A DNA stretch of 64,000 nucleotides, from the NCBI GenBank assembly GCA_029881725.1, contig JAOUMB010000001.1:17321-81320 (forward strand), in the 5' to 3' direction. The notes beneath the pieces were generated by a model. That model worked only from the letters and a program-made list of their open reading frames with translations. It was not told the DNA's origin and ran no database searches. The first letter of the stretch is position 1. Every line of letters begins with the position of its first letter. Of this stretch, positions 2,070-21,536 are shown in pieces. Both the position numbers and the translations under genes were made by a program. The DNA is from Nitrospirota bacterium (GTDB lineage Bacteria > Nitrospirota > JACRHL01).

Positions 2070-3173
2070 TCACGGCGCGCCAATGGTCCCGCACACGGTG
2101 CCGATTTCCGCGTCCGTCATTTCCGCAAAACAGGGCAGGCTCAGGATCCGGCCGGTGGCGCGTGCACTGTGGGTGAGGTCGTTCCGCACATGGGTAACCG
2201 ACGCCATCATCGGCTGATCGGGATCCAGCACCGGGTAATGAATGTCGGTGGCCACGCCGTGGGCCTGCAACCGGGCGCGTACGTCGTCCCGCTGATCGAC
2301 CTGCACCACGCACAGGTGCCCGACACTCCCCGGCTGGTCGGCCCCGGCAAAGTGCCATCCGGAAGGGGCGGCATCCCGGTACCGTTCAATGATCTCGCGG
2401 CGGCGCGCATTCCAATCGTCCAGCCGTTTCAGCTTTACCCGCAGCACGGCCGCCTGCAATTCATCCAGGCGGCTGTTGCGCCCATTGGGGATGGCGCTGT
2501 GATACTTGCGGTCCCATCCATACTGTTTAAAGGCCTTCACGGCCTCCGCGTGCGCCTCCGACTGACATACCACCGCCCCTCCGTCGCCCAGAGCGCCCAA
2601 GTTCTTGGTGGGATAAAAGCTGAAAGTGGCCAATTCTCCCATGGAACCGGCGCGGCAATCATCCAGACGCGCGCCGTGGGCCTGGGCACAGTCTTCCAGA
2701 ATCAGCACGCCCGGGTGCCCGGCGGCATCCAGCCGGCTCCGCAGTTGCGGCACGTCCACCACCGAACCGTACAGATGGGTAGCCACCACCACACGGGTGT
2801 TCGGCCCCACGGCATCAAGCGCCGCTTCAATGCTCATCAGCAGAGTGTCCGGACTCACATCCACATACACTGGCCGGGCACCAACCAGATTGCATGCAAC
2901 GGTGGTATATCCGCCCGCATTGGCCACGGTAATCACTTCGCTGTCCGGGCCACACCCGGCCACCCGCAGGGCAATTTCCAGAGCGTCGGTGCCGTTGGCC
3001 ACACTCACGCAGTGGGCGACACCCAGGTAATGGGCAAAGTCTGCCTCAAAGCCGGAGGTCTCCGAACCCAGCAGGTACCAGCCACTCTCCAGCACGCGCT
3101 GCACCGCCGTGTCGATCCCGGCTTTCAGATCTGAATACTGCCGACCCGGCGCATTGAAGGGAATTTTATTCAT
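2070..3173 (-). CDS. DegT/DnrJ/EryC1/StrS-family sugar aminotransferase (dTDP-3-keto-6-deoxyhexose 3-aminotransferase-like, WxcK/FdtB/QdtB-type)
   Basis: Start set at MNKIPFNAPGRQYSDL. PLP aminotransferase motifs (GWYLLGSETSGFEADFA, SFYPTKNLGALGDGGAVV, LPCF). First gene of a three-gene minus-strand cluster. Confidence 0.8.
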   Translation of the reverse strand: MNKIPFNAPGRQYSDLKAGIDTAVQRVLESGWYLLGSETSGFEADFAHYLGVAHCVSVANGTDALEIALRVAGCGPDSEVITVANAGGYTTVACNLVGARPVYVDVSPDTLLMSIEAALDAVGPNTRVVVATHLYGSVVDVPQLRSRLDAAGHPGVLILEDCAQAHGARLDDCRAGSMGELATFSFYPTKNLGALGDGGAVVCQSEAHAEAVKAFKQYGWDRKYHSAIPNGRNSRLDELQAAVLRVKLKRLDDWNARRREIIERYRDAAPSGWHFAGADQPGSVGHLCVVQVDQRDDVRARLQAHGVATDIHYPVLDPDQPMMASVTHVRNDLTHSARATGRILSLPCFAEMTDAEIGTVCGTIGAP

Positions 3174-3452
3174 GTGCAGGTGAATTTTTTTGATTGAGCA
3201 CAACCGTTTGGTTTGCCTTGTCGGTCGTAACCAGATTCGAGTTGAGCCACCGGATTTTCCCGCACACGAGAGACAAAAGCACTTGAAACCATATCCCCAG
3301 CGCCACTACCCTCCCATTACCCGACGGCGGATATCCTGCTGCCGCGCATTCTACGTTTTTCTCCTGCCCCTCACAAGGAACAGGCTACCCACCCCCTCCG
3401 GCGAACACTGTCACTACCCATTAGCCTCCGGGGCATCTTTGGCAACTCCCCC

Positions 3453-5258
3453 ATGCTCACAACGATCTCATACATAATCCTGTCCACAAGGGCACCGTTT
3501 TATCTGTTTTTCACTTCCCTTTTAACACTCCTTTTTATTACCTACCTCCACCCTTCCGAAGCGTTTTATGATGTCCACGATTATCTGGATGCGTTTTTTG
3601 TCTTCCTGGCCCAACGGGCGGAAATTCCGGATTTGTTCTGGAATCTGAATGCCCGAATGGAACGTCCGCTGGGGGGGATTTCTCTGAATGCGGTCGGGAT
3701 AAACGACTTTGGAATCGGCCAGAACCTGTTTTTATGGTTCGACCCTTTCACCGCGCAGGCCATTGCGGAACTGACCTCACGTGTGATCGGATTTGTCGGC
3801 ACGTTCCTGTTTGTCAGCAGGCATGTGATCCCTCCGCATGCCCGTTCGGGATCAGTATTTATCGCATCCCTCAGCGCTCTCATGTTTGCCATTGCGCCCC
3901 ACTACCCGGCTTTTTATGCAACCGTCACAATGGTGCCTCTGCTCGCATTCGCGGTAGCCAATATCTGGTCCGGAAAGCATCGCCAGACGGACTTTGCCAT
4001 CATTGGTGCATACCCGTTTTTTTCCTACTTTATATTTGGCGGTTTTGCCGTCACCGGAGTGCTTCTTTGGGTCGCAACAATCGCCTTCGTACTGCGCAAC
4101 AAATCAGCACTGATACTGGCACTTACCGGACTTTATCTTCTGCTGGCATACTGTTTGATGGAATACCGCCTGATTGTCGACCTTCTTTTCTCCACAACCC
4201 CTTCGATCCGTTCCGAGTTTATCCACCCGGAGTATTCGGGACTGCCCGCGATCCTGTCGTCGGCATGGGGCGTATTTCTGCACGGGCAACGCCATTTCAA
4301 AGGGGTTCTTTACGGATTCTCGGCGTACTTCGTCTACACCACATCTATCTTTTTTTTCGCTGCCGCCCTGGCACGGCGGTACGGGGTGCGTTTTCTCCCC
4401 GAGCTTCCCAGTCGATCACTTCTCTGGGCTATCCTCTCCATCGGATTGGCCGCACTTTGTTCCATCGTTTACGCGATGGATAACAACGGTCTTTTCAACC
4501 TCAAATACGACATCGGTCTTCCGTTTCAGTTCAACCGCATCATCGTATGGGTGCCTTTCCTCTGGGCGGTTGCTTTTGCGTCCACGCTCTCCTTGGCTAC
4601 TAGCTGGTTTCCCGGGATTCGTGTTCTCCTGCTGGTTGGAATTGCGGTTCTTTCGCTACAGGGAACCTGGGCTCATATCGACGGAATCCATCCCAAGCTC
4701 GGACTGCTCTCCTGCCGCATGTCGGGTAACGGTGAGTGCTCCAAATGGCTCGACCCCATGCGCCCCGCAGCGCAGGTTTCCATTCGCGCCTATTTCCGGC
4801 AGAAAACCTATGAAAAACTGGCTGGAGCCATTGGAAAACCACAGGACCAGTACCGGGTAGTAAGCGTTGGACTCAGCCCAATGACCGCAGTTTTTAACGG
4901 GTTCTTCACGCTTGATGGATACCTAACCAACTATCCCCTTTCCCATAAGGCGGCCTTTCGCAAAATCATTTCCGGTGAGTTGGAAAAGGATGATCGCTTG
5001 ATGCGGTATTTCGACACGTGGGGCGGTCGCGCACGTTTGTTTATTGCAGATCCTGATTCCTGGGCCGGTTTTCGGTCCATTCAACGACCGAACGCCGGAC
5101 CGGTAGACCTGGCCATCGATACCTGCCAGATTTGGTTCATGGGGGGGGAATATATATTTTCCCGTTACCTTTTGGTCAATGCGGAAGAGCTGAACCTTGA
5201 CCTCAAGGGGATCCTCGATGACATTTTTCTGTACGAGATACGCCCGGATTCGTGCTGA
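3453..5258 (+). CDS. Polytopic integral membrane protein (about 11-13 predicted TM segments plus a roughly 200-aa C-terminal soluble domain); candidate GT-C-fold (ArnT/GtrC/YfhO-like) periplasmic glycosyltransferase
   Basis: 601-aa ORF with many hydrophobic segments followed by a hydrophilic C-terminus. Markedly lower GC and AT-rich codons compared with its neighbours. Divergent from the aminotransferase-GT2-isomerase/acetyltransferase cluster. The GT-C assignment is by architecture and context only. Confidence 0.5.
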   Translation: MLTTISYIILSTRAPFYLFFTSLLTLLFITYLHPSEAFYDVHDYLDAFFVFLAQRAEIPDLFWNLNARMERPLGGISLNAVGINDFGIGQNLFLWFDPFTAQAIAELTSRVIGFVGTFLFVSRHVIPPHARSGSVFIASLSALMFAIAPHYPAFYATVTMVPLLAFAVANIWSGKHRQTDFAIIGAYPFFSYFIFGGFAVTGVLLWVATIAFVLRNKSALILALTGLYLLLAYCLMEYRLIVDLLFSTTPSIRSEFIHPEYSGLPAILSSAWGVFLHGQRHFKGVLYGFSAYFVYTTSIFFFAAALARRYGVRFLPELPSRSLLWAILSIGLAALCSIVYAMDNNGLFNLKYDIGLPFQFNRIIVWVPFLWAVAFASTLSLATSWFPGIRVLLLVGIAVLSLQGTWAHIDGIHPKLGLLSCRMSGNGECSKWLDPMRPAAQVSIRAYFRQKTYEKLAGAIGKPQDQYRVVSVGLSPMTAVFNGFFTLDGYLTNYPLSHKAAFRKIISGELEKDDRLMRYFDTWGGRARLFIADPDSWAGFRSIQRPNAGPVDLAIDTCQIWFMGGEYIFSRYLLVNAEELNLDLKGILDDIFLYEIRPDSC

Positions 5259-6106
5259 GGAAAGTCCCCCAGGTGCCCCAAATACCCCGTACCATCCTCA
5301 TCACCGGCGCCTCCTCCGGTATTGGCCGCTGCGCGGCGCTGATGTTCCGGGACCGGGGCTGGCGGGTGTTCGCCACCGCCCGCAAGGACGAGGACCTGGA
5401 GGCGCTGGAGGCGGAAAACGTGACCCCCATCCGTCTGGAACTGGCGGACACCGCCTCGGTGCAGTCCACCGCCGCGCAGGTGCTGAACGCCACCGGCGGG
5501 CGGCTGGACGCCCTGTTCAACAACGGCGCCTACGGCCAGAGCGGCGCCATCGAGGACCTGTCCCGCAGGGCGCTGGAAGAGCAGTTCGCCACCAACCTGT
5601 TCGGCACCGTGGAACTGACCAATGCGGTGCTGCCCGCCATGCGCGCCAACGGGCACGGGCGCATCGTGATGAACAGCAGCGTGCTGGGACTGGTGTCCCT
5701 GGCCTATCGGGGGGCCTACAACGCCAGCAAATATGCCCTGGAGGGGGTTTGCGACACCCTGCGGCTGGAGCTGAAAGGCTCCGGCATCCACGTCTGTCTG
5801 GTGGAGCCGGGGCCGATCCTTTCGCGTTTCCGGGCCAACTCCTATCTGGCCTTTCAGCGCCATATCGACGCGGAGGCCAGTGTGCACCGCGATCGCTACC
5901 GGGCCATGCGCGAGCGGCTCAACACGAAGGGCGCCGCCGTGCCCTTCACCCTGCCGCCGGAAGCGGTGGTGAAAAAGGTCATCCACGCGGTGGAAAGCCG
6001 ATCCCCACGCCCGCGCTACTACGTGACCTTCCCCACCTATCTGTTCGGTTTGTTACGCCGGGTACTGTCCACCCGCATGCTGGACCGGCTGCTGGCCCGG
6101 GTCTAA
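5252..6106 (+). CDS. Short-chain dehydrogenase/reductase (SDR) family oxidoreductase
   Basis: TILITGASSGIG Rossmann motif and NASKYALEG catalytic region (YxxxK). Start is uncertain: GTG at 5252 overlaps the upstream stop; GTG at 5273 is also possible. Confidence 0.8.
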   Translation: MLRKVPQVPQIPRTILITGASSGIGRCAALMFRDRGWRVFATARKDEDLEALEAENVTPIRLELADTASVQSTAAQVLNATGGRLDALFNNGAYGQSGAIEDLSRRALEEQFATNLFGTVELTNAVLPAMRANGHGRIVMNSSVLGLVSLAYRGAYNASKYALEGVCDTLRLELKGSGIHVCLVEPGPILSRFRANSYLAFQRHIDAEASVHRDRYRAMRERLNTKGAAVPFTLPPEAVVKKVIHAVESRSPRPRYYVTFPTYLFGLLRRVLSTRMLDRLLARV

Positions 6107-6116
6107 TCGATCGGGG

Positions 6117-6277
6117 CTGAACGACCACCCCGGCGCCACCCCGCCCATCCGCAACTATGGCCGTGCGCCTGGCACTTCTCCAGAATTCCAGGTTGCCCGG
6201 GGCCAACCTCAAACGGCGCTGAACGACCACCCCGGTGTCACCCCGCCCATCCGCAACTATGGCCGTGCGCCTAGCAC
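6117..6277. repeat. Two copies of a roughly 60-bp direct repeat (6117-6176 and 6218-6277, about 4 mismatches) separated by 41 bp
   Basis: ctgaacgaccaccccggcgccaccccgcccatccgcaactatggccgtgcgcctggcact versus ctgaacgaccaccccggtgtcaccccgcccatccgcaactatggccgtgcgcctagcact. The second copy includes the stop codon and last codon of the minus-strand GGDEF gene. Confidence 0.7.
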
Positions 6278-7644
6278 TCGGCGTGGACCACGCGGTTGCG
6301 GCCTTTGGATTTGGCAACATACAGGGCCTTGTCCGCCTTGGCCACCAGCGGGTCGATGCCCGCCCCGTGATCCGGGTAGGCGGCCACCCCGGCGCTCACC
6401 GTCACCCGCAGGGCCACCTTGCCCAGGTCGGTCACCTCCCGCGCCATCCGTTCGCGAATGCGCTCCGCCACGCCGTGGGCGCCGCTCAGACCGGTGCCGG
6501 GCAGCAGCACGGCAAATTCCTCACCGCCCAGCCGCGCCGGACGGTCGATGGTACGCACCTCCTCGCGCAGCACTTCCGCCAGCAGTTTCAGCACCCGGTC
6601 GCCGGTCTGGTGGCCGTGGCGGTCGTTGACCTGCTTGAAATGGTCCAGGTCCAGGATGATCAGGCCGAACGGTTGCGTGAAGCGCTCCGCCCGCGCCAGT
6701 TCCTCCTCCACATAGCGATGGAATGCGCGCCGGTTGGGCAGGCCGGTCAGTTCGTCGTGCAGCGACAGATATTCCAGCCGCTCGTGGGTACGCGCCAGAT
6801 CCTCGCCCATGCGGTTGAAGGCCGCCGCCAGTTGCCCCAGTTCATCCTTGCGGTCCAGCGCCACCGGCACCGAAAAATCGCCAGTGGCATACCGCTCCGC
6901 CGCCTGCTGCAAGGCGCCCAACGGCAGCACGATGGAGCGGGTCAGGCTGTAGCCGATGATCGCCGCCAGCCCCAGCGCCCCCCACAGCAGCCCCATCACC
7001 ACCGACAGGTCGCGCCGCTGGGCTTCACGGGCCACCACCCACTCGTTGTGAATGCGCCCCTCGATCAATTCATACAGCCGTCCCAGAATCTGGATGGTGT
7101 GGCCGGTGTGGCGGTCGAACTTGTTCATGGTGGCGATGCGCACCGCCTGCGGCATCTCGTCCTCCCGGAACAGGCGCCGGGCGTCGTCGCGGGCGGTGCG
7201 CCATTCGGCCACCGCCACCGCCATCAGCTGCCGTTCCACCCGCAGCAGGGCATCGCGGGTTTCCTCGCGTACCTCCAGGCTCCCTTCCGGGGCCTCCATC
7301 ACCCCCTGTGGCGGCTGCTCCGGGTTGCCGCGCCGGGCATAGCGCTCGAACAGGCCGTCGATCTCCGCCGACACCCGCTCGAAGCCCTCCGGATAGACGG
7401 GGTCGGCCTCGACCAGAAAATCGTGCACCGGCTGGGCGGAGGAATACACCAGTTGTTGCAGGCGCGATACCGGCACCATGGAATCCAGCGCCCGGTTGAC
7501 GATCTGCTGGTAGGAACCGCCCACCATGCCCAGAAACAGGAACGCCCACGCGGACAGGCCGAACACGCCCAGCGCCATCACCATCAGGGTGGCAATGGCG
7601 CGCGCACGCATGGACTGCTGCAAATAGCGGAACAGGCGGATCAA
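6271..7644 (-). CDS. Membrane-anchored diguanylate cyclase (TM - periplasmic sensor region - TM - HAMP-like - GGDEF)
   Basis: Two hydrophobic segments, then a GGDEF domain with RLGGEEF active-site motif, RxxD-type region and DHFKQVNDRHGHQTGD. Start ATG overlaps the stop of the upstream histidine kinase (ATGA). Confidence 0.85.
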   Translation of the reverse strand: MIRLFRYLQQSMRARAIATLMVMALGVFGLSAWAFLFLGMVGGSYQQIVNRALDSMVPVSRLQQLVYSSAQPVHDFLVEADPVYPEGFERVSAEIDGLFERYARRGNPEQPPQGVMEAPEGSLEVREETRDALLRVERQLMAVAVAEWRTARDDARRLFREDEMPQAVRIATMNKFDRHTGHTIQILGRLYELIEGRIHNEWVVAREAQRRDLSVVMGLLWGALGLAAIIGYSLTRSIVLPLGALQQAAERYATGDFSVPVALDRKDELGQLAAAFNRMGEDLARTHERLEYLSLHDELTGLPNRRAFHRYVEEELARAERFTQPFGLIILDLDHFKQVNDRHGHQTGDRVLKLLAEVLREEVRTIDRPARLGGEEFAVLLPGTGLSGAHGVAERIRERMAREVTDLGKVALRVTVSAGVAAYPDHGAGIDPLVAKADKALYVAKSKGRNRVVHAEC

Positions 7645-8969
7645 GCAGTCGGCTCCGTCTCTCCCACCGGCGGGATGGTGACCCGCGCCAGAAAGCCGCC
7701 CAACTCCTCCGACCGGCCAAAGGTGAGGGTTCCGCCATAGGAGTCGGCCACGTCCCCCGCAATGGCCAGACCCAGCCCGTGACCGGGGGCCGCCTCGTCC
7801 AGACGCACGCCCCGGCGGGCAATGTTTTTCAGTTCCTCGTCGGGACAGCCGGGGCCGTCATCCTCCACCCGCACCTGCATGCCGGGAACCTCCTCCACGG
7901 TCAGCCGCACCCGCGCGGTTGCCCACTTGCAGGCATTGTCCAGAAGATTCCCAAATAATTCAAGGAGATCCTCCCGATCGGCCCCGCAGTCCTTGCCCTT
8001 GGGCACGCGCACGTCGATGGTGACCTCGCGCTCCCGGTGGGCGGCGGACACGGCGCGGGCCAGGGCGGTGAGTTCCCGTTCCAGATCCACCCGCTCGCCG
8101 GGGCGGGCCTGTCCGGCCAGCCGGGCACGGCCCAGTTCGCGCTCCACCAGCCCGGTGATGCGCTCCACCTGACCGACGATTTCGGCGCGCGCCCCGGCGC
8201 TGTCCAGGCCGTCGTTTTCGGTGGTCTGGCGGATCACGGAGAGGGGTGTCTTGAGGGCATGGGCCAGATTGCCCATGGCGGTGCGGGAGCGCCCCACGCG
8301 GCGCTGGAGGGAGTCCAGCAACTGGTTGAACCCGGCCACCAGCGGCACCATTTCATCCGGCACCTGTTCGGTGACCCGGGTGGCCTGTCCGCGCTCCAGC
8401 GCCTCCAGGTCCGCCCGCACCCGCTTCAGCGGCTTCAGGGTGTACCCCACGATGGCCCGCTGCAACACCACCAGAAGGCTCAAAAACCCAAGCGAGATCA
8501 ACCCCACCTGCACCTGCATGGCACGCACCGCATGGCTCACGTGGGACAGGTCCTCCCCCACCGAAATCACCACCTGCACACCGCGCCGCGTGTAGGAGCG
8601 GGTAACCACCAGCAACGGCTGCCCACGGGGTCCACGGGCGCGCTGAATGGGGTGTTTGGTGTCGGGAAATCCCTCATCCCACAGGGAGCGGGACAGAAAT
8701 TCACTGGGACCGGCCACCACCCGGAAGTAGTGGCCGGAGAACGGGCGGGAGAACACCGGCCCCACCTGCCGGAGGCCCAGCGTGACGCCTCCCAGGGGAC
8801 CGATGCGCAGGGCTCCGAGTAGCGCCTCGGCGTCGTGCTCCAGCCGCTCCACCATGCGATCTTCGTAAATGGCCGGGGCCATCAGGCCGATCACCACGAA
8901 CTGGAGTGCAAACAGCACCACCAGACTGGCGCTCAACCCCCAGCTCAGACGTGCCTTGAGCGAGTTCAC
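7641..8969 (-). CDS. Sensor histidine kinase (two TM segments, periplasmic domain, HisKA + HATPase_c)
   Basis: H-box (HALKTPLSVIRQ), N-box (GNLLDNACKWA) and G-boxes (DDGPGCPDEE, GHGLGLAIAGD). Overlaps the response regulator gene by 4 bp. Confidence 0.85.
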   Translation of the reverse strand: MNSLKARLSWGLSASLVVLFALQFVVIGLMAPAIYEDRMVERLEHDAEALLGALRIGPLGGVTLGLRQVGPVFSRPFSGHYFRVVAGPSEFLSRSLWDEGFPDTKHPIQRARGPRGQPLLVVTRSYTRRGVQVVISVGEDLSHVSHAVRAMQVQVGLISLGFLSLLVVLQRAIVGYTLKPLKRVRADLEALERGQATRVTEQVPDEMVPLVAGFNQLLDSLQRRVGRSRTAMGNLAHALKTPLSVIRQTTENDGLDSAGARAEIVGQVERITGLVERELGRARLAGQARPGERVDLERELTALARAVSAAHREREVTIDVRVPKGKDCGADREDLLELFGNLLDNACKWATARVRLTVEEVPGMQVRVEDDGPGCPDEELKNIARRGVRLDEAAPGHGLGLAIAGDVADSYGGTLTFGRSEELGGFLARVTIPPVGETEPTA

Positions 8970-9625
8970 TGGCCCCCGAACACGTAGCCCTGGCCGCGCC
9001 GGGTCTGGATCATCTCCTTGCCCACCTTGTCGCGCAGGCGCTTGATGTAGACCTCGATCACGTTGCTGCCGCGCTCCGCGTCCAGGTCGTAGACATGTTC
9101 CTCCAGCCGCTCCTTGGACAGCACCCGCCCCCGGTTGAGCATCAGGGCGCGCAGCAGGCGGAACTCCACCCCGGTCAGGCGGTGGACGGTGCCGTTTACG
9201 GTGACCTGCTGGGTCTCCTCGTCCAGTTCCACCCCCTCCACCGCCAGCGGTCCCTGGGTGCGGCCCTGGCTGCGGCGGATCAGCGCCCCCATGCGGGCGA
9301 TCAGTTCCTTCATGTAAAACGGCTTGGACAGGTAATCGTCGGCTCCGGCGTCGAAGCCGTCCACCTTTTCATGCCACTGGCCGCGGGCGGTGAGCACGAT
9401 CACCGGCGTGGTGTTGCCCCGCTTGCGCCATGCCCGGAGTACGTCCAGCCCCGGTTTTCCCGGCAGACCCAGGTCGAGAATCACCGCGTCGTAGGGAAAC
9501 TGGTTGCCATAGATTTCGGCGCTTTCGCCGTTGCCGGTGCCGTCCACGGCGTAGCCCGATTTGGAAAGGGCGTCCGACAACTGGCTGCGCAACGATTCGT
9601 CGTCTTCAACCACCAGCACGCGCAT
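8966..9625 (-). CDS. OmpR/PhoB-family response regulator (REC + winged-helix DNA-binding domain)
   Basis: MRVLVVEDDESLRSQL...DAVILDLGLPGKPGLDVL...VIVLTARG receiver motifs. C-terminal wHTH (RLTGVEFRLLRALMLNRGRVLSKERLEEHVY...VIEVYIKRLRDKV). Confidence 0.9.
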   Translation of the reverse strand: MRVLVVEDDESLRSQLSDALSKSGYAVDGTGNGESAEIYGNQFPYDAVILDLGLPGKPGLDVLRAWRKRGNTTPVIVLTARGQWHEKVDGFDAGADDYLSKPFYMKELIARMGALIRRSQGRTQGPLAVEGVELDEETQQVTVNGTVHRLTGVEFRLLRALMLNRGRVLSKERLEEHVYDLDAERGSNVIEVYIKRLRDKVGKEMIQTRRGQGYVFGGQ

Positions 9626-9627
9626 GC

Positions 9628-9957
9628 TCAGTCCTCCTGCTCGCTGTCCAGAAGCTCGCCGGTGCGGGCGTCAAAAAAGAACTCCCACACCTCGCCGTCC
9701 TCGGTGAGCAGTTCGATCTCGTACACCAGCCGGTCGTCCCGCTCCTCCAGCTCCGCCTCCAGCAGTTCCCCCTTGCGCTCCTGCTGGGCACGTTCCAGCA
9801 GTTCCGACAGGGGCCGGATTTCGCCGGACATGCGCAGCTTGCGCATCTCGTCATATTCCAGGTCGCCGGCCAGTGCCGGGGCGCCACACCAGGGCGCCAC
9901 CAGCAGGGCCAGCAAAAGCGCCAGAATATGCCTGTGATCAGTCACGTTTCCTTCCAA
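9628..9957 (-). CDS. Small periplasmic PepSY-domain protein (YkoI-like)
   Basis: Signal peptide followed by a charged PepSY-like region (ELLEAELEERDDRLVYEIELLTEDGEVWEFFFDARTGELL). Sits immediately upstream of and overlapping the response regulator, as in many PepSY-two-component-system operons. Confidence 0.7.
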   Translation of the reverse strand: MEGNVTDHRHILALLLALLVAPWCGAPALAGDLEYDEMRKLRMSGEIRPLSELLERAQQERKGELLEAELEERDDRLVYEIELLTEDGEVWEFFFDARTGELLDSEQED

Positions 9958-10483
9958 ACCCGGGAATCACCACGTCGTGCTCGTTATAGTAGCCCTCCGC
10001 GGCCCGGGTGTGGCAAGCATTGCAGTTGGCAATGGTCTTGACCTCCGGGTTGTCGGCCAGCTTGCGCCGGGGAATTTCATTGTGCTCGTGACGGATGAAC
10101 GGAATGTCCGAAATCCGCTGCGGGGCGTCGATGCCCTTTTTGGCCAGCGAGCGCATGATGCGGGCGGAGCGCTTGTTGTCCACCCGGTCGGCGGCGTTTT
10201 CGGCCAGATAGGCGGTAATTTCGGCCTGATCCCCGGGGGGCAGTTCCGCGTTGTCGCCAAAGTGATCCGCCAGCCCGCCCATCAGGTTGCGCCAGCTCTT
10301 TTCGGGCAGCAGGCCCGGTTGGTAGGCAAAGTGGCAGGCGCCGCACTCCTCCGCGTACAGGGGGTTGGTGACCACCCCCACGCTGGAGCCCTTTTTGCTG
10401 CCGCCATCCGCATAAACCAGCGACATGCTGCCCATGAAGATGGCCACCCCCAGTGCCGTTGCGATCCAGTGTCGTGTTTGCAT
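9938..10483 (-). CDS. Periplasmic diheme cytochrome c
   Basis: Two CxxCH heme motifs (CGACH, CNACH) after a signal peptide. Start placed at the second ATG (MQTRHW), which has a GAAGGAG Shine-Dalgarno sequence 5 nt upstream. Confidence 0.75.
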   Translation of the reverse strand: MQTRHWIATALGVAIFMGSMSLVYADGGSKKGSSVGVVTNPLYAEECGACHFAYQPGLLPEKSWRNLMGGLADHFGDNAELPPGDQAEITAYLAENAADRVDNKRSARIMRSLAKKGIDAPQRISDIPFIRHEHNEIPRRKLADNPEVKTIANCNACHTRAAEGYYNEHDVVIPGFGRKRD

Positions 10484-10508
10484 ATGAGCTCCTTCGGTTT
10501 GCATGGCC

Positions 10509-11521
10509 TTACTGGGCCTGAATGAACATCAGCACGTCGCCCTTTTCCTGGGGCGTGCATTCGCGGCCAAGGGTCTCCTTGCAGTTCCGCAGGAGCCATT
10601 TTTCGATCTTTTTCACATCGGTCAGCCGATCGGGCTGCACCGAGGGGGCAATGGGATCGATGGGTTTTCCGGTCTTCTTGTGCTTGCCGGGTTTGGTCAT
10701 GTCGGCGGTGTGGCAGTCGGCACACTGGGTCTTTTTGCCCTCGACCGTATAGGTTCCGTTCCACAGGGTGCGTCCGGCCTCCACGGTGAACGGCCCGGCC
10801 CCCTGGGCCCGGTAGGCGTCCAGCCGGTCCGGCACCATGGATTGCCCGGCCAGGCCCTGCCCGGCGGCGGCCAGCACCAGCAGCAACACCACCCCGGCGG
10901 CGGCCCGCCCCTTCCAGGCGCCAGCGGCCCCCGTTTCGTCGTCATCGGTATCCATGTGCACCTCTTTGCGGCCCGTGACCATGGCACGGATCAGGTTTTC
11001 ACGATGAACGAACGAACTGGCCAGAATCCCCGCCAGATGCAGGCCCACCAGGAACAGGGTAAACCCGGCGAGCACCTCGTGGGCCTCTTCCAGCGGGTCC
11101 TCCAGATCGTGGTAGGGAGCCATGACGGCGGCCATCGGCCCCTGCCCCTCGTCCGCCCCGTACAGCATCATACCGCTGACCCCGGTGAGGGTGAGCGACA
11201 CCAGCAGGGCGATGACCATCCACGCGGCGGCCGGGTTGTGGCCCACATAGGCCTTGCCCCGGAACAGGGCCAGATCCTTCAGATAGGCCAGCGCCGCGCC
11301 GGGGCTGCGCACGAAGCTGGTAAAGCGGGCATGGCGGGTGCCGATCACCCCCCACACCAGACGGAACGCGACCAGCCCCATGATGAGGTAACCGGCGGTG
11401 GTGTGCAGGTCGGCAAAATCGTCCTCGGCGGTGAGCCAGGCCACCGCGAATGCGGTTACCAGCGACCAGTGAAAGATTCGCACCAGCGGATCCCAGACCT
11501 TGACGGTTTTTCGCGGATTCA
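10509..11521 (-). CDS. Cytochrome b561-family membrane cytochrome with a fused C-terminal periplasmic monoheme c-type domain
   Basis: Start placed at MNPRKTVKVWDPLVRIFHWSLV (GGAGG 5 nt upstream). Four TM segments with conserved His residues typical of the b561/Ni-Fe-hydrogenase b-type cytochrome family. C-terminal about 110 aa contains CADCH and resembles small DUF1924-type cytochrome c proteins that are normally separate genes. Confidence 0.75.
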
Positions 11522-11643
11522 TACTGCCTCCATAACTTCCGCCGGGCGAATATCCGGCGCGGGCCAAAACGTGAAGGGCGGCAAAATCGCAGCTCCCGAA
11601 AAGGAGGAGACGGAGCCACGATCCGCCGCCCTTGGAACCAATA

Positions 11644-11722
11644 TGCCAGTCGAATCTGAACGGAGCCTGAACAGAATTCAGATTTGTGCGGCTCCAGCGC
11701 TCCAGCGCTCCGGTGCTGCGCA
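11644..11722. promoter_or_regulatory. Nested inverted repeats (CGGAGCC...GGCTCC flanking CTGAAcagaaTTCAG) followed by four degenerate 8-bp direct repeats (CTCCAGCG) and a T9 run, in the 505-bp divergent intergenic region
   Basis: Read directly: cgaatctgaacggagcctgaacagaattcagatttgtgcggctccagcgctccagcgctccggtgctgcgcactcggcgattttttttt. Lies 120-200 bp upstream of the b561 gene start and about 300 bp upstream of the plus-strand methyltransferase-like gene. Confidence 0.3.
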
Positions 11723-12026
11723 CTCGGCGATTTTTTTTTGGGGGAGGGTGGAGCGGGGGGATTGTTCAACAGCAGGTGGCGGATGGCGCCACACCCCCCG
11801 GTTATTCCGGGGGAGCGCCGTTTATATGAGCACATCCGGACCGGCAAAACCATTCCATTTGTGTTACCATGGCCGACAGTGGGTTGCACCTCACCCGATA
11901 TCCCATCGATTTCCCCCGCCATTTTTATGTTTATGCATCCGGGAACCGGCACGGATGTCACAGGCGTTCCCACGCGACTTTATTGCGCCACAAGGGCCAA
12001 ATTGCTACACACCACGGAGCGAATTC

Positions 12027-12890
12027 ATGTCGAACGAAGCTGTATTTGAGGAAATCAATGAGGTAAAGGCCGACATGGATTACATCTACAATCAGGCTGA
12101 TCCAAGATCTTATTTTCGTGAGTTGCAAAAGCTGAACTATGCGATTCCGGACAGCGCCAAACCGGTGCTTCAAAAGCTGATTGAACACATGCAAAAAAAC
12201 CGCCCCGACACCCTGCACGTGCTGGATCTCGGCTGTTCCTACGGCATCAACGCGGCCATTCTCAAGCACGATCTGTCCATGGACGATCTGTATGCGCACT
12301 GGGGGGATCTTGCCGACGCCACCACCCCGGAGCTGGTGGCCCATGACCAGCGCTATTTCGCCAGCCTTGATGATTCCCGGGACATCGAGGTGATCGGGCT
12401 CGACCAGGCCGATCAGGCGGTTGCGTTCGCCGAGGAGGTGGGCCTGCTGGGCGACAGCCTGGTGACCAACCTGGAAACCGATCCCCTGTCGGCCGCCGAG
12501 AAGGAAGAACTGGCGCCGGTGGATCTGATGATGTCCACCGGGTGCGTGGGCTACCTGACCGAAAAGAGCTTTGACCGCTTGCTCCCCGCCGTAACCGCGG
12601 GGCGGAAGCCGTGGATCGCCAACTTCGTGCTGCGCCTGTTCCCCTTCGATGCCATTGAGAAATCCATGGAAAAATGGGGATACGTCACCGAGAAACTGGC
12701 TGGAAGAACCTTCTTCCAGCGCCGTTTCGCCTCGGATCAGGAACAGGAGCAGGTGCTCCGCCAGTTGCGGGAGCGCGGCATCGACCCCACCGGCATGGAG
12801 GCCGAGGGGCACTTTCTGGCCGAGTTCTATCTGTCCCGTCCCAGGCAGGATGCGTTGGAGATGCCCATCGGGGATCTGCTTCCCGCCTGA
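12027..12890 (+). CDS. Class I SAM-dependent methyltransferase-like protein
   Basis: Motif I-like VLDLGCSYGINAA. Genuine 3' portion of an otherwise artefactual 795-aa ORF; start placed at MSNEAVFEEI. 287 aa. Function unknown. Confidence 0.6.
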   Translation: MSNEAVFEEINEVKADMDYIYNQADPRSYFRELQKLNYAIPDSAKPVLQKLIEHMQKNRPDTLHVLDLGCSYGINAAILKHDLSMDDLYAHWGDLADATTPELVAHDQRYFASLDDSRDIEVIGLDQADQAVAFAEEVGLLGDSLVTNLETDPLSAAEKEELAPVDLMMSTGCVGYLTEKSFDRLLPAVTAGRKPWIANFVLRLFPFDAIEKSMEKWGYVTEKLAGRTFFQRRFASDQEQEQVLRQLRERGIDPTGMEAEGHFLAEFYLSRPRQDALEMPIGDLLPA

Positions 12891-13106
12891 TCCAATCCGC
12901 CCTAACCGTCCGCACTCCGAAATCCCCCCACGGCAGACACCGCCGGAAAGGACTCGCCATCCATTCCGCATTGGCGATCATCGATGGACCATGCTTTTGG
13001 GGACGGTCTGGTGCGGGCTCGGCCGCGCAAATTGACTGGGCCGGATTTGCACCGGGCGGTCCGCTGGTGTAGAAATAGCTACCCTCGTGGCTCCAAGGAA
13101 TCCGAA

Positions 13107-17335: not shown

Positions 17336-19645
17336 ATGGGGTCCCAACTCACCGCAAGGCGAGGGAGATCGGTCATTTCGGACAAACACGCCAGCACCAC
17401 TGCGGCCCCCTCTACCCCCGCCGGTACCCCGACGGGCAGCAAGGGGTTCCGGCGCAAGGGGAAGGGCAAGCCCACCCCGCCCCCGAGCAACGGCAACGCC
17501 CCCAAGGGAAATGCCGTGCGCGTGCTGGTGGTGGACGATGACCGGGCCATGCGCGAACTGGCGGTGCGCTCGCTGGAGCTGTCCGGGTTTGCGGTCGCCT
17601 CCGCCGGCAACGGCCAGCAGGGCGCCCTGGTGTTCGCCGAATTCGTGCCCGATATCGTCCTGCTCGACGTGATGATGCCCGGCTGGGACGGCTTTGCCAC
17701 CTGCAAGGCCATGCGCGGTCTGCCCGAGGGCGGCAACACCCCCATCGTCATGGTCACTGCCCTGGACGATCTTTCATCCATTGAACGCGCCTATGAAGCG
17801 GGCGCCACCGATTTTGCCACCAAGCCGATCCAGTGGCCGGTGCTGGCCCAGCGCCTGCGCTACATGGCCCGCCAGAAGCAGGTGGCCGACAAACTGCGCG
17901 AAAGCGAAAAACGCCTGGCCAAGGCCCAGCGCATCGCCCGCCTGGGCAGTTGGGAGTGGGACATCGCACCCGACCGGCTGACCCTCACATCGGACCCCAA
18001 TTCCGCCCCGCTGGACTGCGGGGAAACGTTCGACGGCACCTTTCTCGGTTTTGTGCGCCTGCTGCATCCGGACGACGCGGGGCGCACCCTGGACGCCATC
18101 CACGCGGGCATCCGTTCCCGGTCCCCGTTCTCGGTGGAATACCGGCTGAACACCGCCGACGGCGCGGAACTGTTCATCCATCAGGAAGCGGAACCGGAGT
18201 TCGACGAGCAGGGCAACCTGGTGCGCCTGAGCGGCACCATCCAGGACATCACCACCCAGCGCGAAACCGAAGACCGCATCCAGTTTCTGACCCGCTACGA
18301 CGGCCTCACCTCCCTCCCCAACCGGCACATGCTGACCGAACAGATCGCGCGCACCATTCAGGGGGCGCAGCGTGGACGGCACATGGCCGCCATCCTGACC
18401 ATCGGCCTGGACCGCTTCGAGCGGATCAACCATGCCTTCGGCCACGATGTGGGCGACGAACTGCTGCGCGAAGCATCCTTGCGCCTGCGCGAATCGGTGG
18501 AACGCTTCGCGGGCCGCTCCCGCTCCGGCCAGCCGCCCATGGTGGCGCGCCTGGGGGGCGACGAATTCTGCGTGGTGTTCACCCACATCGAGGAGGCCAG
18601 CGAAGTGGCCCGCACCGCCCAGATGGTGCTCGATGAACTGACCGACCCGTTCCAGGTGGACGATCACGAGGTATACATCACCAGCAGCATCGGCGCGGCC
18701 CTCTATCCGGTGGACGGCACCTCGGTGGACGGCCTGCTCAAGAACGCCGCCGCCGCCCTCAAGGACGCCAAGGTCCAGGGCAAAAACAACTACCGCTTCT
18801 ATACCAGCACCATGAACTCCGACGCCATGCGCCGGGTGGCGCTGGAGGGCAAGCTGCAAAAGGCCATGGACAACGACGAGCTGGTGCTCTACTACCAGCC
18901 CAAGATCGATATCCGCACCGGCCGGATGATCGCCATGGAGGCGCTGATCCGCTGGCAGCACCCGGAACTGGGCATGGTCTCGCCCGCCGAATTCATCCCC
19001 CTGGCGGAGGAAACCGGGCTGATCGTGAACATCGGTGAATGGGTGCTGTCCGAAGCCTGCCGCCAGAACGTGGCCTGGCAGAAGCAGGGGCTGCACCCGG
19101 TGCAGGTGTCGGTCAACCTGTCGGCCCGCCAGTTCTGGCAGGACGATCTGGCCGAGCGTCTGGGAGGCCTGCTGGCGGAATCCGGCATGGACCCGCGCTG
19201 GCTGGAGCTGGAGATCACCGAGAGCACCTTCATGCACAACGCCGAGGAGACAGAACGCACCCTGCGCGACCTGAAGGCTCTGAACATCTCCCTCAGCGTG
19301 GACGACTTCGGCACCGGCTATTCATCCCTGGCCTATCTGCAACGCTTTCCCATCGACGCCCTGAAGGTGGACCGCTCCTTCATCACCGACGTGACCACCA
19401 GCGCCGACAGCGCCACCATCACCCGCACCATCATCTCCATGGGCCACAGCCTGGGCATGACGGTGATTGCCGAAGGGGTGGAAACTGCCGACCAGTTGCG
19501 CTTCGTGCGCGATCAGGGGTGCGACCAGATTCAGGGCTATCTGGTAAGTCCGCCGATCCCCGCCGAGTCCTTTTCCGAACTGCTGAAGGACGGGAACAAG
19601 CCGCATATCGATCTGTCGCTGCTTTCCGATTCTCCTTCGGAGTAA
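17336..19645 (+). CDS. Response-regulator-type c-di-GMP turnover protein: REC - PAS - GGDEF - EAL
   Basis: Receiver (VRVLVVDDD...DIVLLDVMMPGWDG...IVMVTA), PAS region, GGDEF (RLGGDEF) and EAL (ELVLYYQPK, EITES, DDFGTGYSSL, KVDRSF) all intact. N-terminal about 60 aa is low complexity; the true start may be internal. Confidence 0.85.
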   Translation: MGSQLTARRGRSVISDKHASTTAAPSTPAGTPTGSKGFRRKGKGKPTPPPSNGNAPKGNAVRVLVVDDDRAMRELAVRSLELSGFAVASAGNGQQGALVFAEFVPDIVLLDVMMPGWDGFATCKAMRGLPEGGNTPIVMVTALDDLSSIERAYEAGATDFATKPIQWPVLAQRLRYMARQKQVADKLRESEKRLAKAQRIARLGSWEWDIAPDRLTLTSDPNSAPLDCGETFDGTFLGFVRLLHPDDAGRTLDAIHAGIRSRSPFSVEYRLNTADGAELFIHQEAEPEFDEQGNLVRLSGTIQDITTQRETEDRIQFLTRYDGLTSLPNRHMLTEQIARTIQGAQRGRHMAAILTIGLDRFERINHAFGHDVGDELLREASLRLRESVERFAGRSRSGQPPMVARLGGDEFCVVFTHIEEASEVARTAQMVLDELTDPFQVDDHEVYITSSIGAALYPVDGTSVDGLLKNAAAALKDAKVQGKNNYRFYTSTMNSDAMRRVALEGKLQKAMDNDELVLYYQPKIDIRTGRMIAMEALIRWQHPELGMVSPAEFIPLAEETGLIVNIGEWVLSEACRQNVAWQKQGLHPVQVSVNLSARQFWQDDLAERLGGLLAESGMDPRWLELEITESTFMHNAEETERTLRDLKALNISLSVDDFGTGYSSLAYLQRFPIDALKVDRSFITDVTTSADSATITRTIISMGHSLGMTVIAEGVETADQLRFVRDQGCDQIQGYLVSPPIPAESFSELLKDGNKPHIDLSLLSDSPSE

Positions 19646-19811
19646 TCCAAAACCGCCCCATAAAGGCCAGTAAATTCAAGGGTATCGACAGAAGGTCCGA
19701 CAAGAGGAATGAATTTGCATGCCACCCTTCCGGCGGGGAAGGCGGCACATCGGTTTTACCGGCCGGACCGGGAGCGGATCCGGCCATCCAACTGGAGACG
19801 GGACCCTCACC

Positions 19812-21536
19812 ATGATCGTACGTTCCGGCGGAAACAAGCGCCGCAAGCCATTGGGTGAACGGCTGGTCGAATCCGGCCAGATCACCGCCCAGCAACTGCG
19901 CTTCGCCCTTCAGGAGCAGTCCCGCACCGGACGCCTGCTGGGGGAAATCCTCATCGCCAACAACTTCACCTCCGAGTCGGCCATCGCCTCCATGGTCACC
20001 ATGCAGGCCGGTGACTCCTACGACGACCTGACCGACATCGAAGTGCCGCGCGAGGTGCTGCAACTGCTCCCGGAAACCTTCATCCGCAAGCGCCATGTGC
20101 TGCCCCTGTGGACCGACAACGAAAGCATCCGCGTGGCCATGGTGGACACCTTCGACGTGGAGGCCATCGACGACGTGGCGCGGGTGACCAACCGGGACGT
20201 GGTGGTGGTGGGCTGCCCCCGCTCCGCATTCCTGGACCTGGTGCGCCGCCTGTTCGATTCCGCCGAGGCGCGCAGCAGCCGTTTCGAGGGCGCGGTGAAA
20301 AACGCCGCCCGCTCCATCAGCGATCTGGCCGAAGGCGACCAGACGGCCATCATTACCCTGGTCAACGAAATCATCACCCGCGGGGTGCTGATGGGCGCCA
20401 CCGACATCCACATTCAGCCCGAGGAAGCGGTGGTGCACATCCGCTACCGGGTGGACGGCGTGATGCGCGAAGGCGACACCATCCCGAAGGAGGTGCAGGC
20501 CGCCGTGGAAAGCCGTCTGAAGGTGATGGCGCGGCTGGATATCTCGGAAAAACGCATCCCCCAGGACGGCCGTATCGAGCAGCAGATCGAGGGACGCTGC
20601 ATCGACCTGCGCATCTCCACGGTGCCGGCCCTGGCCGGGGAAAACATCGTGCTGCGCCTGCTGGACCGTGCCAAGGTGGCGGTGCGGCTGGAGGAACTGG
20701 GCCTCACCCCGGCCCACCGCCAGATGTTCCGCGAGGCGGTGTCCCGCCCCCACGGCCTGATTCTGATGACCGGCCCCACCGGCTCCGGCAAGACCACCAC
20801 CCTGTACTCCGGCCTGATGGAAATCAACGCCCTGGAGCGCAACGTGATGACGCTGGAAGATCCGGTGGAGTATCGCATGAGCGTAATCCGCCAGACCCAG
20901 GTGAACGCCAAGGCGGGCTACACCTTCGCCACCGGGCTGCGCGCCCTGCTGCGTCAGGACCCGGACGTGATTCTGGTGGGCGAAATGCGCGACCCCGAAA
21001 CGTCGGACCTGGCCATTCGCGCCAGCATGACCGGCCATCTGGTGCTGTCCACCCTGCACACCAACGACGCATCATCGGCGCTGCCGCGCCTGATCGACAT
21101 GGGGGTCGCCCCCTATCTGCTGCCGTCCACCCTGATCGCGGTGGTGGCCCAGCGGCTGGTGCGCCGCCCGTGCAAACACTGCATGCGCCCCTACACGCCC
21201 GCGGTGGAGGAATTCGAATCCTTCAGCCGGGAGCCTCACGAAGGCAATTTCGTCACCGTGGAGGGGTGCAACCGGTGCTACGGAACCGGCTACTCCGGCC
21301 AGTTGCCGCTGGTGGAATTCCTGAACATGAATCAGGAGGTGGGTGAACTGGTGATGGCCCGCGCCAGCGCCGCCGATATCTATCAGGCGGCCATGGCCTC
21401 CGGCATGCGCGACCTGCGCATGGACGGTTATGAAAAAGCCGTCCAGGGACTCACCACCCTGGCCGAGGTCCAACGCGTGGCCGAACGCCGCCTGGCCGTC
21501 CGCACCGGGCACGCCCCGGAGCGAAATAAAGGGTAA
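19812..21536 (+). CDS. GspE/PilB/MshE-family secretion ATPase with N-terminal T2SSE_N domain and C-terminal tetracysteine motif
   Basis: Start at MIVRSG. N-domain (LGERLVESGQITAQQLRFALQEQ), Walker A (GPTGSGKTT), Asp/His boxes, CKHC...CNRCYGTG zinc-binding cysteines. No other secretion or pilus genes in the window. Confidence 0.85.
   Translation: MIVRSGGNKRRKPLGERLVESGQITAQQLRFALQEQSRTGRLLGEILIANNFTSESAIASMVTMQAGDSYDDLTDIEVPREVLQLLPETFIRKRHVLPLWTDNESIRVAMVDTFDVEAIDDVARVTNRDVVVVGCPRSAFLDLVRRLFDSAEARSSRFEGAVKNAARSISDLAEGDQTAIITLVNEIITRGVLMGATDIHIQPEEAVVHIRYRVDGVMREGDTIPKEVQAAVESRLKVMARLDISEKRIPQDGRIEQQIEGRCIDLRISTVPALAGENIVLRLLDRAKVAVRLEELGLTPAHRQMFREAVSRPHGLILMTGPTGSGKTTTLYSGLMEINALERNVMTLEDPVEYRMSVIRQTQVNAKAGYTFATGLRALLRQDPDVILVGEMRDPETSDLAIRASMTGHLVLSTLHTNDASSALPRLIDMGVAPYLLPSTLIAVVAQRLVRRPCKHCMRPYTPAVEEFESFSREPHEGNFVTVEGCNRCYGTGYSGQLPLVEFLNMNQEVGELVMARASAADIYQAAMASGMRDLRMDGYEKAVQGLTTLAEVQRVAERRLAVRTGHAPERNKG

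Follow-up and report, generated by a model that had tools for sequence, protein, structure and literature searches.

The 64-kb stretch of a Nitrospirota metagenome-assembled genome (MAG) analyzed here, hereafter the window, carries six co-oriented minus-strand genes (g1 to g6, 6271 to 11522) that probably represent an autoregulated operon of the c-type cytochrome SHP with an extra, lineage-specific output in cyclic di-GMP (c-di-GMP), a reading to which a probability of roughly 0.6 can be attached. Judged by domain content and gene order, five of the six genes are the SHP operon that has already been described; the new part is the attachment of a membrane diguanylate cyclase as a sixth cistron, which is restricted to one lineage, and the locus is no new kind of system. 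Its functional steps, as set out below, are drawn from homology and comparative genomics. Related loci used for comparison are numbered with the prefix L, and the six genes are as follows.

10509-11522, minus strand: g1, cytochrome b561 (four transmembrane helices) with a fifth transmembrane helix and a periplasmic SHP (DUF1924) c-type heme domain
9938-10483, minus strand: g2, soluble diheme cytochrome c (DHC) with signal peptide
9628-9945, minus strand: g3, small secreted PepSY protein of 105 aa with signal peptide (Meyer's Orf1; DbfQ/BqsP-like)
8966-9625, minus strand: g4, OmpR-family response regulator, BqsR/CarR-like, with Asp51
7641-8969, minus strand: g5, SK1-type histidine kinase (transmembrane helix, periplasmic domain, transmembrane helix, HAMP, HisKA, HATPase)
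6271-7644, minus strand: g6, diguanylate cyclase (transmembrane helix, periplasmic four-helix bundle, transmembrane helix, HAMP, GGDEF)

Gene packing and conservation of the arrangement

This layout follows from the open reading frames (ORFs), their Pfam domains, and direct reading of the sequence, and the genes are packed as tightly as those of an operon can be. A gap of about 25 nt containing a GGAG Shine-Dalgarno sequence separates g1 from g2, which overlaps g3 by 8 nt (GTGACTGA); a 2-nt gap lies between g3 and g4, and 4-nt overlaps join g4 to g5 (GTGA) and g5 to g6 (TTGA). Homologues share the first residues of g6, MIRL.RYL, which supports the assignment of its TTG start codon. GC content is uniform, at 63-69%, over the whole cluster. 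A preliminary description of this DNA had the gene order and the strand right, as well as the identification of g1 as a cytochrome b561 with a fused c-type domain, and it placed the start of the cluster correctly at 6271 and the end one nucleotide short, at 11521. According to it, overlaps of at least 4 bp join the last four genes to one another; this holds for the g4/g5 and g5/g6 junctions but not for g3/g4.

The six genes look like one transcription unit, because the gaps between them are short or replaced by overlaps, no convincing internal promoter or terminator was found in a consensus scan of positions 5900-13100, and a single candidate regulator box lies upstream of g1. Co-transcription from a presumed promoter would thus be expected, and the earlier assignment of all six genes to the same transcript is supported to this extent. 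The scan returned one weak promoter-like site within g2 and weak terminator-like hairpins only within coding sequence, and a search of 5900-12100 against Rfam at E ≤ 1 gave no match. The arrangement is also not a product of chance, since a second Nitrospirota MAG (GCA_029858285.1; L001) has all six genes in identical order and between matching flanks, at 57-62% protein identity, and since a search with a DHC profile gave 80 genome loci, most of which keep the five-gene order of cytochrome b, SHP, DHC, PepSY, response regulator, and SK1 kinase.

Cytochromes and the SHP operon

The first gene combines matches to PF01292 (6.5e-23) and PF09086 (1.1e-34), joined by a hydrophobic linker, the fifth helix (AAAGVVLLLVLAAAGQGLA). 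Its C-terminal domain matches the structure of SHP (PDB 1dw0, E = 1e-24), and the CxxCH motif aligns with that of SHP together with Trp84, the sixth heme ligand Asn88, and the disulfide-forming Cys89 and Cys97, all of which are conserved, so that WLGRNC...C in SHP is represented by WLLRNC...C in g1. The product of g2 has two CxxCH motifs, belongs to PF09626 (8.3e-37), and matches the solved DHCs of Shewanella (PDB 3u99, 6.9e-32) and Rhodobacter (2fw5, 2.9e-26).

An operon of cytochrome b (CytB), SHP, DHC, a periplasmic protein termed Orf1, a response regulator, and a kinase termed SK1 was described by Meyer, Kyndt & Cusanovich (2010, BMC Biochem 11:24; PMC2909971) in hosts that include Shewanella oneidensis, Mariprofundus ferrooxydans, and Magnetococcus. 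Chimeras of CytB and SHP were already noted there in Rhodospirillum rubrum and Magnetospirillum, and SK1 was defined by periplasmic SGVYWQ-like and RSRSLWD-like motifs and found always to be accompanied by Orf1. Because the same assembly is described in that work, g1-g5 can be assigned to it: the proteins, their order, the CytB/SHP fusion, and the distal-pocket residues of SHP are shared. The window differs in host, a Nitrospirota MAG rather than a proteobacterium, and in the presence of a membrane cyclase coupled to the kinase gene, whereas no cyclase is described as a sixth cistron of the published operon. The association of cytochromes, PepSY protein, and two-component system had been called functionally uncharacterized in the preliminary description, which does not hold. 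The operon is in the literature, structures of SHP and DHC are solved (1dw0, 3u99, 2fw5), and the PepSY-kinase-regulator part has been studied experimentally as DbfQRS and BqsRS (PMC12714742, PMC4358008). The binding of O2 and nitric oxide (NO) by SHP, which in the published system takes place in the reduced state with DHC as reductant, and its NO dioxygenase activity are in vitro observations.

The PepSY, regulator, and kinase module

The three genes g3-g4-g5 form a set of the DbfQRS/BqsRS type. The g3 product is a PF03413 (PepSY) protein (3.7e-14) with a signal peptide evident from the sequence, and in the related loci the PepSY gene always lies directly upstream of the response regulator and SK1 genes. 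The response regulator (PF00072 and PF00486) is 53.7% identical to BqsR in the receiver domain (8gc6) and 54.3% identical in the DNA-binding domain (9yfa). These two structures are also its top PDB matches, at 140 versus 109 bits and 96 versus 55 bits relative to the next-best entries, and judged by them g4 is orthologous to BqsR/CarR. In the BqsPQRS/CarRS systems of Pseudomonas aeruginosa (Kreamer et al. 2015, mBio; Paredes et al. 2026, Nat Commun), as here, one or more PepSY genes precede the two-component system and Asp51 of the regulator is shared, the regulators being about 54% identical in both domains; these systems are autoregulated. In contrast to the window, the bqs operon contains neither cytochromes nor a cyclase.

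DbfQRS of Vibrio cholerae offers the closest functional precedent. As with g3-g5, a small secreted PepSY gene stands directly upstream of genes for an OmpR-type regulator and a kinase with two transmembrane helices. Binding of the PepSY protein DbfQ to the sensor domain of DbfS shifts the kinase toward phosphatase activity (PMC12714742; Nguyen et al. 2025, Nat Commun 16:11230). The dbfQRS genes are positively autoregulated, and phosphorylated DbfR raises c-di-GMP by up-regulating the cyclase gene cdgL, so that the output of the system includes c-di-GMP made by a diguanylate cyclase; BqsS of Pseudomonas aeruginosa is named as the DbfS orthologue in the same work (PMC12714742). Whereas cdgL is encoded elsewhere and controlled in trans, and the dbf system lacks cytochrome genes, both cyclase and cytochrome chain lie within the operon in the window.

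The kinase g5 has HAMP, HisKA, and HATPase domains in Pfam and carries both SK1 motifs, as SGHYFR (residues 78-83) and SRSLWD (93-98); in an alignment of 127 SK1 homologues, S78, G79, Y81, S93, S95, and W97 are conserved at 81-100%. A further motif, R42-L-E-H45-D46-A-E48, is specific to the cytochrome-linked members of the family (these residues are encoded by positions 8826-8846 of the window). Where the periplasmic domain begins, the SK1 proteins of this alignment that are encoded beside SHP or DHC keep R-L-x-H-D-x-E (with H in 79%, D in 80%, and E in 82% of them), and those without cytochromes have R-L-G/N-V-Y-L-R. The motif sits where BqsS has its Fe(II)-sensing RExxE, and for this reason it may be a site at which the cytochrome-linked subfamily in particular binds a metal or a partner. 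No heme-binding motif was found in the sensor domain of either g5 or g6. NCBIfam has no model for BqsS/BqsR or DbfS/DbfR, and all its matches to g4 and g5 fell under the curated cutoffs; a PDB sequence search with g5 returned cytoplasmic kinase cores only, with no solved BqsS or DbfS sensor domain for comparison; tblastn of g5 against plasmids gave generically named kinases and no named orthologue; and the isolated periplasmic domain of g5 had no Pfam match at E = 10.

A conserved repeat upstream of the cytochrome b gene

Upstream of g1 lies a direct repeat with the architecture of the BqsR box.

11656-11671, minus strand: predicted regulator binding site, direct repeat TTCAG-N6-TTCAG (TTCAGGCTCCGTTCAG), 149 nt upstream of the g1 ATG

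The pattern TTMAG-N6-TTMAG has no other match on either strand of the 64 kb, against an expectation of 0.10. The BqsR box itself, TTAAG-N6-TTAAG, overlaps the -35 element of its own, autoregulated operon (PMC4358008); the 5+6+5 architecture is the same, and the half-site TTCAG of the window differs from TTAAG by one base. Among 61 related loci, about 40 have the same repeat ahead of their cytochrome b gene, in every case in the orientation of that gene, compared with a background of 0.0115 per 340 nt. It also precedes cytochrome operons without a two-component system beside them (L018, L028, L033, L069, and L070). Loci within L004-L082 with TTCAG/TTAAG-N6-TTCAG/TTAAG upstream of an SHP-operon cytochrome b gene come from Nitrospirota, Nitrospinota, Zetaproteobacteria, and Gammaproteobacteria. 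No paper was found that links a BqsR-box-like repeat to SHP-operon cytochrome b genes.

From these observations we infer that g4 activates the whole operon by binding the repeat at 11656-11671. The conservation of the box upstream of cytochrome b, together with the frequent occurrence of PepSY-regulator-SK1 sets without SHP or DHC nearby (about 60 of 80 metagenome loci), indicates that the cytochromes are most likely a regulated output of the system and not its sensor.

The diguanylate cyclase

The g6 product matches PF00672 and PF00990 (3.6e-46) and looks catalytically competent. The GGEEF motif, reported as intact in the preliminary description, is indeed present, and the metal- and GTP-binding residues D332, N340, D349, R371, G373, and G374 are invariant in an alignment of the g6 family. 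An RxxD inhibitory site (I-site) lies five residues upstream of it (RTID-RPARL-GGEEF), with R364 and D367 invariant across 23 family members. The order of transmembrane helix, sensor, transmembrane helix, HAMP, and GGDEF, the intact GGEEF, and the RxxD motif are shared with known membrane HAMP-GGDEF cyclases with a four-helix-bundle sensor and with DgcN/YfiN.

An AlphaFold model of the whole protein has a predicted local distance difference test score (pLDDT) of 89.7, and that of the periplasmic domain a pLDDT of 90.1 and a predicted template modeling score (pTM) of 0.84. The domain is predicted to form an antiparallel four-helix bundle continuous with both transmembrane helices and HAMP. Foldseek comparison of the bundle gave 4k0d, 9m08, 5xsj, and 8bsa as best matches, among proteins that include Adeh_2942, QseE, LytS-N, and the ligand-binding domain of Vc1313; with E ≥ 0.0096 in every case, the likeness to known four-helix-bundle sensors is one of fold only. 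The isolated domain had no Pfam match at E = 10, and a profile of the g6 family searched against the PDB returned a single match, to 3va9 ("Sensor histidine kinase", E = 0.018); 3va9 is a CHASE3 domain, and the g6 sensor may conceivably be of that kind. The N-terminal region of g6 has 49 relatives among 1.84 billion representative proteins, and those checked by Pfam or alignment have the same layout of two transmembrane helices around a sensor, HAMP, and GGDEF. On these comparisons, the g6 periplasmic domain defines a small family outside Pfam.

Distribution and history of the cyclase attachment

How often a GGDEF gene is attached to the set, a profiling proposed along with the preliminary description, was counted over 101 SK1 genes whose contigs extend 1.4 kb or more past the gene on the downstream side. 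A same-strand GGDEF gene follows the kinase in three of these loci; the carriers (the window, L001, and L084) belong to a single Nitrospirota clade. Among 5.8 billion proteins, g6 has, besides an identical copy, one other full-length homologue, the 62% identical protein from L001. A separate query for the exact g6 sequence returned no record. With further loci included, a g6-type cyclase directly follows the kinase on the same strand in the window, L001, L174, L083, and L084/L085, with kinase/cyclase junctions that are 4-nt overlaps or gaps of at most 49 nt. The L174 contig encodes a kinase 79% identical to g5 and a g6 homologue 86% identical over a partial ORF, which overlaps the kinase stop codon. 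In L083, a fragment encoded upstream of the cyclase closely matches the C-terminus of g5, and L084/L085 is a Leptospirillia MAG with the full order from cytochrome b/SHP through DHC, PepSY, response regulator, and SK1 to GGDEF. The cyclases of L083 and L084 are about 42% identical to g6 over their full length and 31-34% identical in the periplasmic domain. A scan of metagenomes for kinase relatives reached at most 44% identity, and none of the 80 SK1 loci that it gave has a same-strand cyclase after the kinase; it added no member to the group with the cyclase and served as a negative control.

A neighbor-joining tree built from the kinases recovers a clade with 100% support, and loci with the cyclase sit on either side of its deepest split; the cyclase is therefore ancestral to this Nitrospirota clade. 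A subclade of L004, L172, and L173 (100% support) has neither SHP domain nor cyclase at the same syntenic locus, which is flanked by UPF0093 upstream and by SDR, YjbQ, and LigT downstream; the reduced operons of these three loci consist of cytochrome b, DHC, PepSY, response regulator, and SK1, or of the same set lacking DHC. Thus, within the clade, SHP domain and cyclase are jointly present or absent despite lying at opposite ends of the operon. The cyclase was lost together with SHP on one branch, a pattern that is suggestive of dependence and that represents a single evolutionary event.

A different cyclase, with a PilJ-type periplasmic domain and GGDEF, abuts the complete SHP operon in two gammaproteobacterial MAGs (L010, 5136-6281, minus strand; L044, 8871-9998, minus strand). 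These genes are convergent with the operon and end 4-14 nt from the SK1 stop codon, and their products are 63% identical to one another; the SHP operon has thus become associated with a periplasm-sensing cyclase a second time, independently of the Nitrospirota case. No literature was found that links DUF1924/SHP with diguanylate cyclases or with PepSY proteins. The g6 sensor-cyclase family also recurs beside phosphorelay components in other contexts: in L086, L088, and L089, distant members are followed by an overlapping receiver-domain gene, which in L088 is CheB-like (REC and CheB methylesterase).

Proposed mechanism and alternatives

In the reading favored here, the PepSY protein, SK1, and BqsR-like regulator would act as an envelope or metal sensor of the DbfQRS/BqsRS type. 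By analogy with DbfQ, g3 would bind the periplasmic domain of g5 and bias it toward phosphatase activity until a periplasmic cue, for which Fe(II) or another cation and envelope stress are precedents, switches the kinase on. Phosphorylated g4 would then bind TTCAG-N6-TTCAG and induce the six-gene transcript, its own genes included. One output would be a quinol-oxidizing chain in which electrons pass from cytochrome b via DHC to the membrane-tethered SHP heme, where a small periplasmic molecule may be reduced or oxygenated. The other would be the g6 cyclase, whose amount should rise with kinase activity and whose specific activity would be set through HAMP by its own four-helix bundle and limited by product feedback at the RxxD site. 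Because the cyclase would be both induced with the operon and equipped with its own sensor, c-di-GMP would report the coincidence of an induced operon and a cyclase ligand. The arrangement would thus be an in-operon, hard-wired version of the link from DbfR to CdgL in V. cholerae.

Several observations weigh against this reading. The BqsS motif RExxE is absent as such from g5, which has RLEHDAE in its place, and Fe(II) can therefore not be assumed as its signal on the model of BqsS; DbfS of V. cholerae, moreover, is not iron-responsive (PMC12714742), and g5 is likened to BqsS and DbfS by analogy. No convincing promoter emerged from the consensus scan in the vicinity of the repeat, which at 149 nt lies farther from the g1 ATG than in most proteobacterial loci. 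The cyclase is missing from 98 of the 101 SK1 loci, so that the system evidently works without it and the link could be incidental, and more distant g6 homologues stand in unrelated gene contexts.

The last points lead to the view that the cyclase could be a passenger, a gene that came to lie behind the kinase in one lineage and is read through, with no functional tie to the cytochromes or the two-component system other than shared transcription. Three of 101 SK1 loci, all of a single clade, are what this predicts, GGDEF genes are numerous in such genomes, and cyclases of the same family are found beside ADH and phosphorylase genes, a hybrid kinase, and CheB-like regulators. Yet the cyclase gene has stayed directly behind the kinase gene even as identity fell to about 42% overall for the cyclase (22-34% for its periplasmic domain) and to 49% for the kinase, the 4-nt start/stop overlap persists in three lineages (the window, L001, and L174), carriers occur on either side of the deepest split of the clade, and the V. 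cholerae homologue of the system itself acts through a cyclase. A mere passenger is accordingly rather unlikely. A direct effect of the PepSY protein on the cyclase, which would be repressed by g3 as YfiN/DgcN is by YfiR, in addition to or instead of the kinase, is a very improbable alternative. The layout of g6 is that of DgcN/YfiN, with an NCBIfam match at 156 bits that lies below the cutoff of 325, and PepSY proteins are well known to bind sensor domains in the periplasm. The periplasmic domain of YfiN, however, is PAS-like, whereas that of g6 is modeled as a four-helix bundle; PepSY is not homologous to YfiR, and it accompanies SK1 everywhere and the cyclase only in this clade.

The preliminary description had a periplasmic redox signal converted into both a transcriptional and a c-di-GMP output. 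The combined output remains plausible; a signal supplied by the cytochromes is not favored. In such a relay, the redox or ligand state of SHP and DHC would be read by PepSY/SK1, by the g6 bundle, or by both, and passed into phosphorylation and c-di-GMP. The idea gains from the joint presence (window, L001, L084/L085) or absence (L004, L172, L173) of SHP and cyclase, from the His/Asp/Glu motif that cytochrome-linked SK1s conserve and other SK1s lack, from the binding of periplasmic partner proteins by some of the closest bundle structures (QseE-QseG, LytS-XylFII), and from the second lineage (L010, L044) in which a different periplasm-sensing cyclase abuts the operon. It is nevertheless unlikely, as the PepSY-regulator-SK1 set is so often found without SHP or DHC and works in that form in Vibrio and Pseudomonas, the box upstream of cytochrome b marks the cytochromes as targets even where no two-component system is encoded locally, and the joint absence of SHP and cyclase, being confined to a single branch, amounts to one evolutionary observation. 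Neither sensor domain has a heme-binding motif, and g6 has a four-helix-bundle sensor of its own. A more specific and decidedly doubtful proposal has the SK1 kinase and the g6 bundle sensing, each on its own, a single periplasmic event, which could be the heme redox or ligand state of SHP/DHC, the SHP reaction product, or PepSY itself. If true, the operon would be a self-contained sensor of redox state or of a small molecule with parallel phosphorylation and c-di-GMP outputs, the SHP chain would be a sensor front end and not a metabolic enzyme, and the joint presence and absence of SHP and cyclase would reflect functional dependence.

Implications

The physiological role of SHP has been a puzzle since 1985, which makes it an orphan cytochrome of some 40 years' standing. 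The sensor of the SHP operon (SK1/Orf1) is tied to BqsRS/DbfQRS by regulator orthology, by a box found across several phyla, and by the PepSY partner. Any cue that activates these kinases is accordingly predicted to induce SHP operons as well, with Fe(II) or other cations and envelope damage as precedents, and such induction would fit the abundance of SHP operons in lineages that oxidize iron, manganese, and sulfur. The signals of PepSY-linked kinases are poorly known beyond two pathogens, and the links drawn here make questions about them more testable. The conserved box and the cytochrome-specific H-D-x-E motif in SK1 are perhaps the more useful results, as they connect SHP to a tractable signaling family. 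In one Nitrospirota clade, the connection between a PepSY two-component system and c-di-GMP would be written into the operon, where Vibrio needs activation of cdgL in trans, suggesting that a link to sessile or biofilm life is a recurrent feature of the module.

Surroundings of the operon

Downstream of g6, a pair of direct repeats fills the space up to the convergent SDR gene.

6113-6169 and 6215-6271, minus strand: two near-identical direct repeats of about 57 nt, 102 nt apart, the latter overlapping the g6 stop codon

Their 33-nt core is found at these two places alone in the window and never in shuffled sequence; the repeats have no stable or unusual RNA fold (z = 0.89) and no Rfam match. 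In L084, a 613-aa gene without a Pfam match stands between the cyclase and SDR genes.

Farther out, a gene for a 601-aa DUF6044 membrane protein (3453-5258, plus strand) lies within DNA of 52-53% GC and strong negative AT skew (window positions 3000-5000), in surroundings of 64-70% GC, which suggests recent horizontal acquisition. On the other side, between the upstream region of the operon and the UPF0093 (HemJ-like) gene, lies a 288-aa ORF without a Pfam match (12024-12890, plus strand), which is not at this position in the syntenic L001, L172, and L173. Beyond it, a REC-PAS-GGDEF-EAL gene (17336-19645, plus strand) is directly followed by a gene for a type II/IV secretion ATPase with MshEN (19719-21536, plus strand). 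MshEN is a known c-di-GMP-binding domain, and further c-di-GMP turnover and a likely effector are thus encoded within 10 kb of the operon. The REC-PAS-GGDEF-EAL gene also neighbors the operon in L001 and L004.

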